From Escherichia phage 04086, in the sequence record OR842557: a stretch of 64,000 nt of DNA. One strand, 5' to 3'. The number at the start of each line of letters is the position of its first letter. Within the stretch, counting starts at the first letter, position 1. Below are positions 30,830 through 42,691 of this stretch, in pieces. The position numbers and the translations under genes were made by a program. The notes below the pieces were generated by a model. The model saw nothing but the letters and a program-made list of their open reading frames with translations, made no database searches and was not told where the DNA came from.

Positions 30830-31198
30830 TTATATAGTCAAGCCGTCGTATGAAGACTGATTACCAGCATTCACCGGCGCACCAAACAAGAAACCGGGTC
30901 GCTACCGGTAAGTCGTCGGACTGATGTTCCCTGAATAAGGACTGACATTAACAAATCTTTACGATCTGTTAACGTCCCCTTACATCACAGCAGAAACGGC
31001 GCACCGAATTATCGATTCGAGGAAATATCTTTGCCGTAAGCCGAGTAGCGTTTTTGACGGAACGTTCGGATATGGTCGAGATATGGCCTTTTAAAAATAT
31101 TGAGTAGCGTCAACTACTTAATAACCGGGTTCGAATCCCGGCGTTTCGTACAAACACTTGCCTAGCAGGTGGAACCCCAACAAGGTTGCCGCAAGGCA
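30830..31198 (+). ncRNA. candidate small stable RNA region (possibly T4 RNA C/D-like), including a tRNA-like T-arm
   Basis: About 370 bp without an ORF directly after the tRNAs; canonical T-arm ccggg-TTCGAAT-cccgg at 31125-31141 with possible acceptor pairing cggaacg/cgtttcg; followed by a strong terminator. T4 has stable RNAs near its tRNA cluster, as I recall it. Confidence 0.35.
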
Positions 31199-31199
31199 T

Positions 31200-31228
31200 A
31201 GCCCCTTCCGAAAGGTTGGGGCTTTTTG
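31200..31228 (+). terminator. intrinsic terminator
   Basis: gcccc-ttccgaaaggtt-ggggc followed by TTTTT. Confidence 0.7.
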
Positions 31229-31268
31229 GCATAATAAATAGATAAGTTAATTAACTTAGGAAATAATA

Positions 31269-31477
31269 ATGAAAACTTACAATGAATTTTTGACCGAACA
31301 ATCTAGTTCAGATGTAAAAGCCGCTGCGATTGCAGCAATTCAAGCAGGTAAATATTCTTACAAAGACGCCTCTGATGAAGAACGNNNAACAAGGTTGCCG
31401 CAAGGCATAGCCCCTTCCGAAAGGTTGGGGCTTTTTGGCATAATAAATAGATAAGTTAATTAACTTAGGAAATAATA
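31269..31477. repeat. N-flanked duplicated block (assembly artifact)
   Basis: NNN at 31385-31387; 31269-31384 equals 31478-31593 and 31388-31477 equals 31179-31268. Confidence 0.75.
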
Positions 31478-31942
31478 ATGAAAACTTACAATGAATTTTT
31501 GACCGAACAATCTAGTTCAGATGTAAAAGCCGCTGCGATTGCAGCAATTCAAGCAGGTAAATATTCTTACAAAGACGCCTCTGATGAAGAACGTTTCCGT
31601 TTTATTAAAGATTTTAAAGCCGAAGGTTTTACTAATGCCAATACTGTTAGCCGAGTTTTTAAAAGCCTAGCTGCATCAGGTGAATTGTTCCAGAAAGCTA
31701 CAGGTAAAGCACCTGCTACAAAAGCGGACCCTAAAGCCTCTCAAGAAAAAAATATCGCCAAAGGAATTATTTCTAAGTATGAAGCAATTCTTAAAGAGCT
31801 TTTAGTAATCAAAACAGAAGGCCAGAAACTAGCACGAGCACATAGCTTCAAAGATAATCCGCATGCTCACGACTTAGAGTATGTTGAAGATATTCAGAAA
31901 ATCATCAAAGACCGTATCTGGTCTGCTAAACAAATCAAATAA
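31478..31942 (+). CDS. internal protein-like (capsid-targeting leader variant)
   Basis: 154 aa; N-terminus MKTYNEFLTEQ resembles the capsid-targeting sequence MKTYQEFIAE; lysine- and alanine-rich body. Confidence 0.55.
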   Translation: MKTYNEFLTEQSSSDVKAAAIAAIQAGKYSYKDASDEERFRFIKDFKAEGFTNANTVSRVFKSLAASGELFQKATGKAPATKADPKASQEKNIAKGIISKYEAILKELLVIKTEGQKLARAHSFKDNPHAHDLEYVEDIQKIIKDRIWSAKQIK

Positions 31943-33387: not shown

Positions 33388-33417
33388 GTTTACAACCCTC
33401 AGAGGACAGGGTATAAT
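33388..33417 (+). promoter_or_regulatory. early promoter cassette (GTTTAC-18-TATAAT) with flanking inverted repeat
   Basis: GTTTAC 33388-33393, TATAAT 33412-33417; inverted repeat gaggac/gtcctc. Confidence 0.6.
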
Positions 33418-33460: not shown

Positions 33461-34054
33461 ATGAACACTTTAAAGAAACTCGTTGAATTCATTCGTTCTA
33501 AACTGGGTACCGCAATGGCTCAGAACCTGTCAATTGAAGACCAGTATACTAAAGCTGCTTCTACCTTGATTGATAAAATCACTGAGCTCCAGACTGCCCA
33601 TGTTAAGTCTGTGAATGAAGAAAAACGTATTCGTGAACTCGCTAACGAAAAGGACCAACTGGCTAGTTCCAAAGAACGCGAAATTCGTAAACTGATTAAA
33701 GAAGGTGCCGATGTCCAGGTACATGCTAAACTCGGCCTCCTTTATCGTCGTACGGCTACTCAACTTCGTAAGAAAGCCGATGATTATGTTGAAATGCGTA
33801 ATGAAATTAAGCTTAAGGTCAAGGAACTTGATGACTCTCGCCAGGAACTAGCGGTTAAGCTTGAGTACATTCGTGAAACTCGTAATATGGCCGCCCTGGG
33901 TATTGCTACTGCCGATGATGTTGTTGAAATCGCTGCATTGACTAAGATTGATATTGAAGACACCCTGATGCGTGTAGAAACGTTTAAAGGCCCACAAGTT
34001 GGAATGGATACGACTTCTGCTGATATCGAAGACTACATTAATTCACTTAAGTAA
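33461..34054 (+). CDS. coiled-coil protein of unknown function
   Basis: 197 aa, strongly helical with heptad-like composition; no catalytic motif seen. Confidence 0.5.
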
Positions 34055-34061
34055 TGTTACT

Positions 34062-34084
34062 GGGAGACTTCGGTCTCCCTATTT
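34062..34084 (+). terminator. terminator-like hairpin
   Basis: gggagac-ttcg-gtctccc followed by a weak T-run (tattt). Confidence 0.4.
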
Positions 34085-34102
34085 GGAGGAGAGGAGAATA
34101 TT

Positions 34103-34639
34103 ATGAGCTTATATGATAATTTGATATCCAATATTGATTGGTTTAAAAATAGCGGTCTTTCCCATGAAACCAATTCAGTTCTTTATAGAATTCGCCAAGA
34201 CCTAGGCTATTCAAACGATTTCTTAAGCAGAACATCTAGCCGTGGCGATACTACCAAATTACCTTTTATTTTTGCTTTAGCTGAAGACCTTTCTTTTGAA
34301 GATGCTTTGGAAATTATTGACGTAAATCTGGCTATTCAACGAGTGGAATTCGCTGGACTACGTTATTCAGTATATTCTCTAAACGAGAGCGCTGATTGTG
34401 TGCTTCTTAATATGGCAGACGATGATTACCATTTAGTATGTTATGTAGCTTTAGAAAATGGTGATGTATTTGGAATGGTTGACCGCCGTCCATCTTACTC
34501 TGATATTAAAAATTATGATAAAGCCGAGCTTGGTATCTTAACTACTGAGTACACATTAGAAAGTCGTAAACAACAACGTAAGCTTAATCGTTTTATTGCT
34601 GAATGTCGCGAATACGCTAAAGAGGTTCAAAATGCATAA
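34103..34639 (+). CDS. hypothetical protein
   Basis: 178-aa ORF with strong RBS ggaggagagg. Confidence 0.5.
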   Translation: MSLYDNLISNIDWFKNSGLSHETNSVLYRIRQDLGYSNDFLSRTSSRGDTTKLPFIFALAEDLSFEDALEIIDVNLAIQRVEFAGLRYSVYSLNESADCVLLNMADDDYHLVCYVALENGDVFGMVDRRPSYSDIKNYDKAELGILTTEYTLESRKQQRKLNRFIAECREYAKEVQNA

Positions 34640-34985
34640 GCCTAGTAAAACCGACCCTGGTTACGCATTAGCAGATTATGATATAGCTATTTCCTTATTC
34701 CTCGGCATTGCTACTAGTATGACTGCAGGGATAATTGGATTTCTTGTCGGTGGGATTATTAATGGTATGCCTCGCCATCCGTTTGAAGATATGAGCCTTG
34801 CATGGATTTGGGTTCCGGCTTTAATAGGATTTTTTATCCCATGGGTCTTTGATATTGCCCAAACTAATAAAATAAACAAGCCACGTAAAAAGAGATATGC
34901 TTTAGCTATGGCTAATTATAATGAGTATGTAAAACAAACTAAACGTAATGACCTTGAAACCTTTATTAAGGAATGTAAATCATGA
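34632..34985 (+). CDS. predicted membrane protein with C-terminal FIKEC module
   Basis: 117 aa from ATG 34632; two hydrophobic helices; C-terminus ...NDLETFIKECKS resembles the C-terminus of ORF 39065-39652. Confidence 0.5.
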   Translation: MHKPSKTDPGYALADYDIAISLFLGIATSMTAGIIGFLVGGIINGMPRHPFEDMSLAWIWVPALIGFFIPWVFDIAQTNKINKPRKKRYALAMANYNEYVKQTKRNDLETFIKECKS

Positions 34986-35272
34986 ATAAAATTGAAATTG
35001 AAATCCCTGAATACAACAGCGCGCTGTCTGCAGAAAAGGCTATCTATGCTCTTCTGAATAAAGTGAATACCATCGAACATGAATGTGAAGCCATTGCCGA
35101 TAAGTATGGTATTCAATTCGGAACCGGTGATTATGGTTCAGGCCGTACATATTATCCTGTCGGTTATGAATGCTCCCAGTGGTTTAAAGATGAAATTGAA
35201 AACAATGGCGGTGAAGTTGAAAACGGTGTCGTTACAGTTGGTGCTTGGGTCTCCTCTTCGGCAATGTGCTAA
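34982..35272 (+). CDS. small protein, member 1 of the WxSSSxxC tandem paralog array
   Basis: 96 aa; ends GAWVSSSAMC; the next gene starts 9 nt downstream behind taaggaa. Confidence 0.6.
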   Translation: MNKIEIEIPEYNSALSAEKAIYALLNKVNTIEHECEAIADKYGIQFGTGDYGSGRTYYPVGYECSQWFKDEIENNGGEVENGVVTVGAWVSSSAMC

Positions 35273-35281
35273 GGAAACGCT

Positions 35282-35563
35282 ATGATGAATGATTACCGTA
35301 AAAATAAAGAGCTGGCTGAAGCAGTAAATGATATTCATAAAGCTATTCGTCGTGCTGAGGAAATTGCTAACAAATATGAGACTCATTTTAATATATACCC
35401 TGCTCGCGGTATGGGCGGTGACTATTATTCTCCTGGCGCCCTGAAAGCCGACCTTGCCCACTGGGAAGAATACGGTGAAGCTCAGTACGCTATTGTAAAC
35501 CAACATGATTACACTACCAGCCTAGAAAATGGTGGATGGGTATCCTCTTCTTCTGAATGTTAA
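35282..35563 (+). CDS. small protein, member 2 of the WxSSSxxC tandem paralog array
   Basis: 93 aa; ends GGWVSSSSEC; shares KY...YYxP core with member 1. Confidence 0.6.
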   Translation: MMNDYRKNKELAEAVNDIHKAIRRAEEIANKYETHFNIYPARGMGGDYYSPGALKADLAHWEEYGEAQYAIVNQHDYTTSLENGGWVSSSSEC

Positions 35564-35572
35564 GGAATTATT

Positions 35573-35770
35573 ATGTCTCGTGAACTAGATTGTGCAATCC
35601 GGACCGCTGCTGCGGCTATTGAAAACGTTATCCAGATTTGCAAAGAAGAACGTGAAGAAGCTGATATCTACATCGATGGTCAACGTGACCTGGAACGTCA
35701 TATCACGCTTTATAACGGTTGTATTACTATTAGTGGTACCTCTTGGGTGTCCTCCTCTTACGAATGCTAA
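35573..35770 (+). CDS. small protein, member 3 of the WxSSSxxC tandem paralog array
   Basis: 65 aa; ends TSWVSSSYEC. Confidence 0.6.
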   Translation: MSRELDCAIRTAAAAIENVIQICKEEREEADIYIDGQRDLERHITLYNGCITISGTSWVSSSYEC

Positions 35771-35779
35771 GGTAATAAA

Positions 35780-35992
35780 ATGACTATTGATGAAATTGAA
35801 AAACAAATCCGTGAATTAGTACGTAAAGGCCAGTCCGTGGCTGACGAAACAGGTGAAGAGTTCCATGTTTCTGGTCGTGGACAATACATTTCTCCAAAGA
35901 ACCCGGAATATGATGATTACGAATGGGTCCGTGATGATTACGGCATTCCTGATGGTGATGGTTTCTGGTTTACTTCTTCTATGTCTTGCTAA
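35780..35992 (+). CDS. small protein, member 4 of the WxSSSxxC tandem paralog array
   Basis: 70 aa; ends GFWFTSSMSC. Confidence 0.55.
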   Translation: MTIDEIEKQIRELVRKGQSVADETGEEFHVSGRGQYISPKNPEYDDYEWVRDDYGIPDGDGFWFTSSMSC

Positions 35993-36002
35993 GGAAATAA
36001 AA

Positions 36003-36227
36003 ATGTCTGATATTAATGAATTAGAAAAAGCTGCTCTTGAACTGGCTGCACTGTATAAGAAAGTAAAAGATATGGCTTCTGCCCAGGATTTCGGTGTTGA
36101 GCTCGATGATTATGACGGTGAAGTTCGTCTCGAAGATTGGCTGAATAGCTCTTGTTATGGTGAAGAAGCTGGTCGCACCTTCGTTGCTCAGGCCGATGGT
36201 AAAATCTGGTATCCGAGCTCATGCTAA
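36003..36227 (+). CDS. small protein, member 5 of the WxSSSxxC tandem paralog array
   Basis: 74 aa from ATG 36003 (ORF-track start 35853 is an overlapping extension); ends KIWYPSSC. Confidence 0.55.
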   Translation: MSDINELEKAALELAALYKKVKDMASAQDFGVELDDYDGEVRLEDWLNSSCYGEEAGRTFVAQADGKIWYPSSC

Positions 36228-36448
36228 AATTAAAGAAAAGATACATTCGTAAAATAAATGGTCTTCGCGATTATGCCAAAGGTTGGCCACTAAGTATTAT
36301 TATGGCTGATAGACACCCACGTTATAATACCGAGATGACTTATTACAAAAAGTATGATTCGTATTGTCGGTCTAAAGCAGGCCGTTTAGATGGTTCTTAC
36401 GAAGACTATTTTGGTAAAAAACCTACTCGTGTTTCGTTAGGAAAATAA
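36221..36448 (+). CDS. hypothetical basic protein
   Basis: 75 aa; ATG overlaps the preceding stop. Confidence 0.45.
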   Translation: MLKLKKRYIRKINGLRDYAKGWPLSIIMADRHPRYNTEMTYYKKYDSYCRSKAGRLDGSYEDYFGKKPTRVSLGK

Positions 36449-36478
36449 TTTAACCACATGGATGTGGTAGGAGGACTT

Positions 36479-36808
36479 ATGCATAAAGATTCAGTATTCA
36501 AATATCTTTTGAAAACAGATAAAGAATTCTATATGAATGGGCAAGCCTTCTTGTTCGTTCGTGGTAAACGTGAGATGTTTTACAAATGCGACCTCTCAAT
36601 GCACCATCATATGTATCACACCCACGGCGAGCCTATACTGGGGTTCTCTGGTGACGAAACTAGACATATAGCTATGTACTACGACCATTTTAAGCTCAAT
36701 GATTGTGGTGACAACGCTTTGGTCTGGAATCCATCTTGGCGTCGTTGGGATACGGTAGACAACGATAAATTATTTTTAGAATATTGCAGAAGTGATGTAC
36801 AACTCTAA
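36479..36808 (+). CDS. hypothetical protein
   Basis: 109 aa from ATG 36479 with AGGAGG RBS; His-rich (MHHHMYHTH). Confidence 0.5.
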   Translation: MHKDSVFKYLLKTDKEFYMNGQAFLFVRGKREMFYKCDLSMHHHMYHTHGEPILGFSGDETRHIAMYYDHFKLNDCGDNALVWNPSWRRWDTVDNDKLFLEYCRSDVQL

Positions 36809-36824
36809 AAATACGTGTTACTAT
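36795..36824 (+). promoter_or_regulatory. possible early promoter (ATGTAC-18-TACTAT)
   Basis: Weaker -35 but the same TACTAT -10 as the cassettes; upstream of ORF 36852. Confidence 0.3.
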
Positions 36825-36851
36825 TACCCTACACAAACATGAGGAGAACAT

Positions 36852-37091
36852 ATGTGGTATTACGCTCCGATGTCCGATAAGTCTAATGAACCGGTACGCA
36901 TTACTCGTGCCAAGTTTAAAAAGATTTACGGCTTTGCTTATAAGAAGTCTGATTACGGTGTTCGTTTTGAAGATGCCCACTGTATCAATGACCCTTATGC
37001 AGAAGAAATCTCTAATGAGATAATTCCTATCGTTGAGAGTAATTCCAATGATATGTGGGAATTGCATAACACTTACGTTGCCGAAATTTAA
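36852..37091 (+). CDS. hypothetical protein
   Basis: 79-aa ORF with GAGGAG RBS. Confidence 0.5.
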   Translation: MWYYAPMSDKSNEPVRITRAKFKKIYGFAYKKSDYGVRFEDAHCINDPYAEEISNEIIPIVESNSNDMWELHNTYVAEI

Positions 37092-37110: not shown

Positions 37111-38070
37111 ATGATGTTAGTTATTGGTTCTCGTGCACTGCACCAAGCTGGTTTGATTGAAAGTAAGTATATCGAAAATTCTGATTGGGATTTCATTGCC
37201 GACCAAGGCTCATGGAACCACTTTAAAGCACGTATGTTCGGTGCTCATGTACACGTTGACAATCCTGATGTTCAGGCTTTCAAATGTATGCATAATGGTA
37301 AAGAAACCTATTTCGAAGCTTATATCGTCCGGGCCCTGACTAATGTACGAGAAATTACCGGTGAGCTCCAAGATGAAGACTACACCTCAAGCTATCGTCT
37401 CCTGAAATATGCTGAAACCCATATTAAAAAGGACCGTCTTACAGGTTTCTATTGGGCAACGCCTGATATCTGTCTGGCTATCAAAACCTCTCATCGTTTC
37501 CTGAAGAATAATCCATTCTTCCTGAAAACTATGTCCCACATCAAATACCTTCGTAATAAAGGTATCACCCTGAATGAAGAACTCCAGGAAATTATGCTGC
37601 AACGTCAAAAAGAAACGTTGAGCTATTCCCATCCTAAATTGGATGTAAACAAATCATCGTTCTTTAATGATACCATTTATACCCTAGACCATGACTCTAT
37701 TCATGAAGCAGTGGCATTGGCAGGGCGCCCTGCATATACCTTTTATATGAAGGAAGGTTCTGAAGTCATGACCTCTCGTGAGAAGTTCGAGGCTTTGCCT
37801 GAAGCTATTAAACTGGCCGGTGTGTATGAAGAAACTTGTGTCCTGGCCCTAGAACGTTCACAGGTTCCTAATGACTTCAATATTTCACCATCATTAAGTT
37901 TCTATATGGCTCTTGAGAAAGTGTGTACCTCAATCACTTCAGGTTGGTTCCGCGAGTACGCCTGGGAAAACTACCAAGCTGTGGTTAATATGTATAAGGC
38001 TCTAGGTGAAAACGACTACATCAAGCGTTTCCAAGATAACCATCATTTAATTCGTCCTTTCGAAAAATAA
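37111..38070 (+). CDS. hypothetical protein with weak nucleotidyltransferase-like motif
   Basis: 319 aa from ATG 37111 (RBS GAGG); N-terminal VIGSRALHQAG...ENSDWDF loosely resembles a GS...DxD pattern and the N-terminus of ORF 50846. Confidence 0.45.
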   Translation: MMLVIGSRALHQAGLIESKYIENSDWDFIADQGSWNHFKARMFGAHVHVDNPDVQAFKCMHNGKETYFEAYIVRALTNVREITGELQDEDYTSSYRLLKYAETHIKKDRLTGFYWATPDICLAIKTSHRFLKNNPFFLKTMSHIKYLRNKGITLNEELQEIMLQRQKETLSYSHPKLDVNKSSFFNDTIYTLDHDSIHEAVALAGRPAYTFYMKEGSEVMTSREKFEALPEAIKLAGVYEETCVLALERSQVPNDFNISPSLSFYMALEKVCTSITSGWFREYAWENYQAVVNMYKALGENDYIKRFQDNHHLIRPFEK

Positions 38071-40340: not shown

Positions 40341-41093
40341 ATGAATTATTTAAAAATATATGAATCTTTAATAGAATCCACTATTAAAAGACCTCACATA
40401 TGTGGGTACACCGAAAAACATCATATTTTACCGAAATCGATGGGTGGTAGTGATTCTATTGATAACTTAGTCGACCTCACCGCCCGAGAACATTTTATTG
40501 CACACCTATTATTGGCACGGATTTTTAAAAATCGCGAAATGTGGTCCGCTGTATATATGATGGCTTCAACAAGCTTGTCAAACTCTGACAGACATAGATG
40601 TTCATCGCATTTGTACGAATTATTGCGAGAACGTGCATCAATATATAATTCAGGTGAAAATTCTCCAAATTGGGGAATTAAACGTTCCGAAGAAACACGA
40701 TTAAAAATGTCAATTTCGAAAATGGGTTCCAAAAATCCAATGTATGGGATTCCTCAATGCTCGGAACACACCAACAAAATTAGTCTTGGTGTTATTGAAG
40801 CTTTTAAAAATCCGGAAATAAAAGAGCGACATAGGCAAAGTGTTTCCGGGGAACTCAATGGGTTTTATGGAAAGAACCATTCCGAAAAAAGTTTGGAAAA
40901 ACAACGGAATGCAAAACGGAAAGGATTTCCTTGGGACAATTATTCAGAATTGTACCCAATTTGGGTTTCATTAAATTGTCCCAAACATCCAACATTCACA
41001 AATGAACTTGTTAAATTGGGATATCCTAAAAAGAAACTTGTTCGAATAGTGGAAGAATTTAAAAATGAATATCTTCGAAATGTTACGCCTTGA
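40341..41093 (+). CDS. HNH homing endonuclease with NUMOD-like repeats
   Basis: [10 protein letters not shown]...[32 protein letters not shown] plus repeated SxxxxGxxNPMYG-type modules; the 3' end overlaps the lysozyme start by 29 nt. Confidence 0.8.
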
Positions 41094-42065: not shown

Positions 42066-42425
42066 ATGAAAACTTACCAACAATTTATTACTGAATCTAC
42101 TCAGCGCATTAACGAAGCTATGTCTCCTGAACAGTTGGCTAAAGCTAAAGAAGGGCTGAACCCGTCCGAAGTCTTTAAAGTTACAGGTAAAGATTTCTCT
42201 TCCATGGCCACTAACCAAAGTCTGGCTAAAGAACTTAAATCTAAATCTAACTTCATTCATGCTACATGGAATGGTGATTCTCTTACTTCAATAAGTGTGT
42301 ACAATAAAAAAGGTCTCCTTAAGAGTTCTTATGGCGCGGATGCCATCCGTGTTTCTAAATCAGATTGGCATAAAAACACTACTAAAGCAGAAAAACCTCA
42401 TAACCCGGCACTTGACCATCTTTAA
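42066..42425 (+). CDS. internal protein (capsid-targeting leader)
   Basis: 119 aa; N-terminus MKTYQQFITES. Confidence 0.65.
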   Translation: MKTYQQFITESTQRINEAMSPEQLAKAKEGLNPSEVFKVTGKDFSSMATNQSLAKELKSKSNFIHATWNGDSLTSISVYNKKGLLKSSYGADAIRVSKSDWHKNTTKAEKPHNPALDHL

Positions 42426-42433
42426 GGAATAAT

Positions 42434-42691
42434 ATGAAAACTTACCAGCAATTTATCGCAGAATCCACTTTAGTTTCTAAACGTTGGAATATGATTGTAA
42501 ACGTTAAACCTTCCGGCACTGAAGTTTCTATGGCCGACCCTAATGATGACGAACTTGAGCACGCTTTTAGCTCTAAAGAAACTGACGAGAAAGTGGTTAA
42601 GCAACTGGTTGCTGATGCAGACCAACTTCGTAAAGTAGCAGATGTTGTTAAGCTGTTTACTAAGAAAGGTTTTAAACACGAAGAGCGTTAA
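42434..42691 (+). CDS. internal protein (capsid-targeting leader)
   Basis: 85 aa; N-terminus MKTYQQFIAES; starts behind taaggaataatATG. Confidence 0.65.
   Translation: MKTYQQFIAESTLVSKRWNMIVNVKPSGTEVSMADPNDDELEHAFSSKETDEKVVKQLVADADQLRKVADVVKLFTKKGFKHEER

Follow-up and report, generated by a model that had tools for sequence, protein, structure and literature searches.

Pol-beta-fold enzymes modify hydroxyls at tRNA 3' ends, on aminoglycosides and on tyrosine, serine or threonine in proteins, and GlnD and GlnE are nucleotidylyltransferases of this fold that modify a hydroxyl of a partner protein. Bacteria are known to use nucleotidyltransferases of the MenT/AbiEii group as toxins and as effectors of abortive infection. 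The MenT toxins extend the 3' ends of tRNAs with nucleotides, and their antitoxins are encoded upstream (PMC7450476, PMC10435456, PMC11375011). In MenAT1 of M. tuberculosis, the antitoxin MenA1 is a helical protein of 68 aa, encoded 5' of MenT1, that blocks the toxin's active site and triggers its auto-phosphorylation (PMC10435456, PMC11375011), a mode that has also been reported for AbiEi-AbiEii (bioRxiv 10.64898/2026.01.19.700257). AbiE belongs to the nucleotidyltransferase superfamily of MenT and consists of two genes in one operon, the upstream one encoding the regulator (PMC7450476; bioRxiv 10.64898/2026.01.19.700257). In the HEPN-MNT (HepT-MntA) type VII toxin-antitoxin system, the pol-beta-fold enzyme MntA covalently nucleotidylylates a hydroxyl of its partner protein (PMC7641770). 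MenAT1 and AbiE are the closest known systems to the phage locus described here, which differs from them in five respects: a lytic phage host, an extra DUF7275 domain on the enzyme, an unrelated fold of the partner protein, several partner copies, and a terminal tail on the partner.

The window, that is, the whole 64,000-nt stretch of DNA that was analysed, derives from Escherichia phage 04086 (OR842557), a T4-like Dhakavirus of the JS98/Bp7 group that is 97.7% identical to Escherichia phage UGJNEcP3 over positions 34000-37000. An earlier note had described a tandem array of five ORFs in this DNA, each with its own ribosome-binding site, about 9 nt apart and ending in a common C-terminal tail, and our analysis confirms both the layout and the tail. 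The array (34982-36227) consists of five co-oriented genes on the + strand, m1 to m5, with spacers of 9, 9, 9 and 10 nt, and the TAA stop codons of m1-m4 open the Shine-Dalgarno site of the next gene (TAAGGA or TAAGGT). The first gene, m1 (34982-35272, 96 aa, pI 4.3), is of a 'GDYGSGRTYYP' subtype and ends in WVSSSAMC (codons at 35246-35269), while m2 (35282-35563, 93 aa, pI 5.1) is of a 'GMGGDYYSP' subtype and ends in WVSSSSEC (35537-35560). The third, m3 (35573-35770, 65 aa), is a minimal form in which a helix and a short beta segment are followed by the tail WVSSSYEC (35744-35767). Next, m4 (35780-35992, 70 aa) ends in WFTSSMSC (35966-35989), and m5 (36003-36227, 74 aa, with its ATG at 36003) ends in the short tail WYPSSC (36207-36224) and has a second copy of the motif inside the protein, DWLNSSC (36138-36155); the m5-like gene of Phapecoctavirus has an internal DWQSSSC.

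Exactly these five genes match the pattern W..SS.{0,2}C$ among the 380 window ORFs of at least 40 aa, and 0.006 matches per window are expected from residue shuffles. The serine region is encoded differently in each copy (tcc tct tcg, tcc tct tct, tcc tcc tct, act tct tct and ccg agc tca, from m1 to m5), so the tail is conserved as protein and not as a DNA repeat or a by-product of the ribosome-binding sites. Since the tail also survives in unrelated sequence contexts, a DNA-level or ribosome-site origin is ruled out. When compared with orthologues in related phages, dN/dS was 0.15-0.24 for m1, 0.14-0.30 for m2, 0.05-0.35 for m3, 0.17 for m4 and 0.04-0.26 for m5, close to the values of the neighbouring genes. 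The overall range of 0.04-0.35 shows purifying selection on all five, which are therefore real, expressed genes. The paralogues had been called diversifying, a description that finds no support, since each of them is old, with m1-like and m5-like types also present in Phapecoctavirus, and each is constrained. A recent duplication of the array is ruled out on the same two grounds, and conservation of the tail is not limited to this array, as it is kept in very distant phages. The m3 gene is missing from Bp7 (L001, 2764-2774), WG01, MX01 and other relatives with the flanking units intact; the end of the repeated unit, ...TGGGTxTCCTCTTC...TAAGGAA, could mediate such loss or gain.

Pfam, NCBIfam, PADLOC and a PDB sequence profile yielded nothing credible for the small proteins. 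In PHROGs, m1, m2, m4 and m5 match phrog_899 (E 6e-23, 3e-20, 1e-13 and 4e-10, respectively) and m3 matches phrog_4882 (E 1e-36); both are listed as of unknown function, and PHROGs makes no connection between the two, nor of either to DUF7275. Profile searching did not place the proteins in any characterised family, and no study of either the small proteins or the DUF7275 enzyme was found in the literature. An exhaustive search of 1.8 billion representatives with a family profile matched 144 clusters at E<=1e-3, nearly all of 70-110 aa, and 138 clusters were analysed, with two repeat-protein matches, one two-domain match and one truncated sequence removed. The long repeat proteins P0040 and P0076 look like compositional artefacts and were left out; P0040, the top-scoring match, is a 2,500-aa protein of Ala/Thr/Ser/Val-rich repeats with 21 partial matches to profile positions 12-60, and is most likely such an artefact.

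The members of the family are acidic (mean pI 4.6) and are built from an amphipathic helix of about 30 residues ending in ...EAExIADExG, an xFxF-x-YGMGGTYYP segment, an acidic Trp-rich linker and the tail. A 'KY...YYxP' core had been pointed out in m1 and m2; it is real and corresponds to the family-wide IADExG-xF...YGMGGTYYP core. The consensus C-terminus is G-x-W-x-S-S-S-x-x-C, and its general form is G-x-W-x-x-S-S-(x0-2)-C-COOH. An exact W-x6-C-COOH end is found in 128 of the 138 clusters, 127 of which have serine at both -5 and -4. The tryptophan, the two serines and the strictly terminal cysteine are invariant even though overall identity is about 25%, and extra internal copies of the motif occur in 17 of the 138 clusters, m5 among them. 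The earlier proposal that the five are paralogues of one family, with the tail as its invariant part, is thereby supported, and they are members of a widespread, uncharacterised, phage-only family of small proteins. The alignment of m3 with the main family is limited to the 13-residue tail (hhalign probability 93.6). Of 212 tail-bearing ORFs compared without their tails, 182 remain a single BLAST family; 20 ORFs of the m3 type group separately and a few singletons stand apart, which gives little weight to the view of the tail as a portable tag on unrelated folds. An AlphaFold model computed for m1 from 143 aligned sequences (pLDDT 94.2, pTM 0.80) predicts a 29-residue helix (14-42), a small sheet, a second helix (66-74), three more strands and a terminal turn, an apparently new fold. 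W89 lies in the last beta strand of this model, residues 92-95 form a short helix and the last six residues have a mean pLDDT of 81; the tail may therefore be partly packed and not free.

Downstream of the array in the window lies the conserved partner gene (37111-38070 on the + strand, 319 aa), which encodes a DUF7277+DUF7275 protein predicted to be a MenT/AbiEii-like nucleotidyltransferase with a pol-beta fold; three unrelated small ORFs occupy the intervening 0.9 kb. In three distant metagenomic family members, the small gene is located directly 5' of a DUF7277+DUF7275 gene, and at the single-copy loci L004, L005 and L006 it abuts or overlaps the enzyme start. The pairing was surveyed by an IMG/VR search anchored on the enzyme, in which all six frames of 80 loci were scanned for tail ORFs. 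At least one tail-ending ORF was present in 81 of 86 enzyme-bearing loci, and all 200 tail ORFs were on the enzyme strand, with none on the opposite strand. Each locus has one to six copies, the nearest of which usually ends no more than a few hundred nucleotides upstream of the enzyme, with gaps of up to 1.6 kb in loci other than the window. When the enzyme was dereplicated at 70% identity, the tail family lay within 3 kb of it in 36 of 43 lineages, and the next real neighbour family did so in at most six, a difference that rules out general synteny as the cause of the linkage; one neighbour 'family' counted in 31 of the 43 was discounted because it consists of antisense ORFs inside the enzyme gene. 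In the reverse direction, the enzyme was present in six of seven contexts anchored on the tail gene, and the seventh contig is only 1.2 kb long. In an unrelated metagenomic contig (L096, 11-2237), the DUF7275 gene comes directly after five tandem tail genes, which equals the copy number of the window.

The pairing is found in Straboviridae genera, Phapecoctavirus, Otagovirus, Menderavirus and jumbo-phage contigs. The three matches among 185,579 species genomes are all to MAG contigs, and the module seems to be essentially phage-exclusive. Neither the tail gene nor the enzyme occurs in the early and accessory regions of T4 (124 of 169 kb scanned), in agreement with the earlier remark that the family was not recognised from T4; a match to T4 tk.1 (E 0.009) is too weak to count. 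In seven of the 43 enzyme lineages there is no tail gene nearby, and the tail family is missing from Streptomyces, Gordonia and Vibrio phages with distant homologues of the enzyme (25-34% identity). Annadreamy (Streptomyces), ClubL (Gordonia) and PVA8 (Vibrio) have a different neighbour of 95-112 aa with the sequence ...GRYFK.TGYYDS...FVEV.P.Q.TIT.Y (L087 4699-5037, L088 4600-4890 and L090 3705-4001), which may serve as a partner in place of the tail family, to which it is not homologous (hhalign probability 0.2). At two further loci the two genes stand in the reverse order, with the enzyme gene 5' of the tail gene, and a gene of the Acb2/Tad1-hairpin family, by its Pfam name an anti-CBASS/anti-Thoeris sponge family, is located two genes 3' of the tail gene (L091 3510-3752, L092 2306-2548). 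Taken together, the tail family is almost always found beside a toxin-like nucleotidyltransferase gene, and thus the small proteins and the enzyme probably work together.

The enzyme family comprises more than 2,032 protein clusters and 734 phage records, all of them unannotated. The AlphaFold model of the enzyme (pLDDT 93.2) is closest to the M. tuberculosis toxin MenT1 (score 10.1), followed by the aminoglycoside nucleotidyltransferase ANT(2'') (8.7), MenT3/TglT (8.5), MenT4 (7.7) and LnuA (7.1). Residues G6, S7, D25, D27 and E69 are invariant in 68 homologues and correspond to the pol-beta G[GS]...DxD...E signature (motifs I and II); K125, H128, R129 and K139 are also invariant. The enzyme is thus predicted to have a pol-beta nucleotidyltransferase fold like that of MenT1, and its catalytic residues are intact. 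By sequence, it falls outside Pfam AbiEii/DUF1814 with its C-terminal motifs III and IV, as only DUF7275 and DUF7277 match even at E<=10. RlaP (PF10127), an RNA-ligase-associated pol-beta nucleotidyltransferase, gave no match at the same threshold, so an assignment to that family failed; an RNA ligase is found near the enzyme in L004 and phage Annadreamy only.

The phage enzyme has a larger C-terminal helical domain (DUF7275) than MenT1. Unlike MenA1, whose C-terminus is dispensable, the small proteins are defined by their C-terminal tail, are unrelated to it in fold and occur in one to six copies; no cognate antitoxin homologous to MenA1, MenA3/COG5340 or AbiEi was found. MenAT1 is located on a bacterial chromosome, whereas the tail/enzyme pair is carried by a lytic phage. 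Similarly, AbiEi is a winged-helix protein of about 195 aa and AbiE serves host defence, whereas the phage partner is an acidic protein of 65-100 aa in a module with hardly any occurrence outside phages.

The tRNA genes on one side and lysozyme on the other delimit the accessory zone in which the array is situated. Of the two genes just 5' of the array (34103-34985), one corresponds to T4 e.5, with which it has the C-terminal ...ECREY.K in common, and the other to the membrane proteins e.3/e.4 of T4. Projected on the T4 gene order, the array and the enzyme lie between e.3 and e.2. A consensus scan located an early-promoter-like, sigma-70-type site at 33389-33417 on the + strand (TTTACA-17-TATAAT, 11/12), 5' of the e.6 homologue, and no terminator-like site on that strand between 32390 and 41338. 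The array and the nucleotidyltransferase gene are thus probably co-transcribed as one unit. A 250-aa ORF (40341-41093), probably a homing endonuclease, lies between a nudE homologue and the lysozyme gene, whose start (41065) it overlaps by 29 nt; it has NUMOD3 motifs (Pfam E 6e-12), and its N-terminus is HNH-like. Positions 31179-31593 consist of two 100% identical 206-nt copies around 'nnn' (31385-31387), which double the start of an ORF that opens with MKTYNEFLTE (31269 and 31478); this looks like an assembly join of overlapping contig ends, not biology. The ORFs at 31478-31942, 42066-42425 and 42434-42691 start with MKTY(N/Q)(E/Q)F(L/I)(T/A)E, which resembles the capsid-targeting sequence of T4 internal proteins, and they probably encode packaged internal proteins that flank the accessory region. 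None of m1-m5 has the targeting sequence MKTY(Q/N)EF(I/L)xE, and their reading as T4-type internal, capsid-packaged proteins failed on that account.

The earlier note had suggested that the tail could be a targeting or modification tag, an idea that stays good and now has a candidate enzyme in the MenT-like nucleotidyltransferase 0.9 kb downstream. Of the roles that the small proteins could have as its partners, we tentatively favour that of acceptors modified on a tail serine hydroxyl, although we put it at somewhat less than an even chance. The enzyme would recognise the C-terminal tail, and one of the two invariant serine hydroxyls would accept a nucleotidyl (or phosphoryl) group. The paralogues would then form the substrate set of one enzyme, with different bodies and the same acceptor tail, co-expressed early. 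This reading is favoured by the several old, individually conserved paralogues per enzyme, by the position of the invariant hydroxyls at the chain end and by the internal motif repeats of some members, and a tRNA poison would make little sense for a lytic phage. MntA and GlnD/GlnE act on a tyrosine of a toxin or metabolic enzyme, whereas the acceptor proposed here is the Ser-Ser tail of dedicated small proteins. Against acceptor function stand the three unrelated ORFs between the array and the enzyme, the gaps of up to 1.6 kb elsewhere, the tail that is possibly partly packed in the m1 model, and the enzyme lineages and distant actinophage and Vibrio phage homologues that have no tail gene nearby. 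The terminal cysteine is also not accounted for by simple O-nucleotidylylation, nor by the rival explanations. A bolder version, in which the MenT-like enzyme covalently modifies the Ser-Ser-...-Cys tails by O-nucleotidylylation or phosphorylation, possibly followed by elimination and cysteine addition, to give a new class of 'armed' phage effectors, seems to us doubtful. If true, it would represent a protein-tail tagging system in many large lytic phages.

RiPP systems likewise combine several small tandem precursor genes, one conserved segment and one adjacent modifying enzyme, and the tail here has the chemistry of serine plus cysteine. However, the products here are predicted to be folded domains of 7-11 kDa, the conserved part is C-terminal and not a leader, and no LanB/LanM/LanKC, YcaO or radical-SAM genes were found among the neighbours; a RiPP or lanthipeptide precursor reading failed for these reasons.

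Antitoxin-like regulation is a close rival of the acceptor reading, possible but in our estimation rather improbable. The small proteins would bind the enzyme non-covalently through their long helix, as MenA1 binds MenT1, and would block it, retarget it or trigger its auto-phosphorylation; the tail would be an active-site plug or pseudo-substrate and the pair a phage-borne counterpart of MenAT or AbiE. The closest structural neighbour of the enzyme is MenT1 itself, whose antitoxin provides the precedent for both active-site blockage and auto-phosphorylation, and the small gene directly meets the enzyme start at the single-copy loci. Gene order, small size and the long helix seen in the m1 model match the MenA1 precedent (PMC10435456) as well as they match the acceptor reading.

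It is unlikely that the small proteins are independent host-directed effectors, such as anti-defence proteins or nucleic-acid mimics, with a tail that binds a host factor and a linkage that reflects co-inheritance in an accessory island. The acidity of all members, the location between the tRNA genes and lysozyme, the Acb2/Tad1-hairpin gene two genes off in L091 and the separation of the array from the enzyme in the window are in keeping with this explanation. However, the neighbours turn over completely between lineages while the pair persists, and strand and order are also conserved. Retention of the tail for structure or turnover only, with the tryptophan in the core, the serines capping the terminal turn and the cysteine as a dimer link or C-terminal degron, agrees with W89 in a strand and a defined tail conformation in the m1 model, but is very improbable given the invariance of the four tail residues in otherwise divergent proteins, the internal tandem copies and the m3 type that retains only the tail, a pattern typical of a functional linear motif.

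The small proteins are soluble and only one enzyme is involved, so the system is easily accessible to experiment. There is a reasonable chance that the pair hides a new protein-modification chemistry. Among their accessory genes, large lytic phages commonly carry a distant MenT/AbiEii relative whose catalytic residues are intact. If the pair works together, two DUFs and two PHROG families without a known function gain testable roles, whether the pair represents a protein modification that is new, a toxin-antitoxin-like switch borne by phages, or a counter to host defences that target tRNA.
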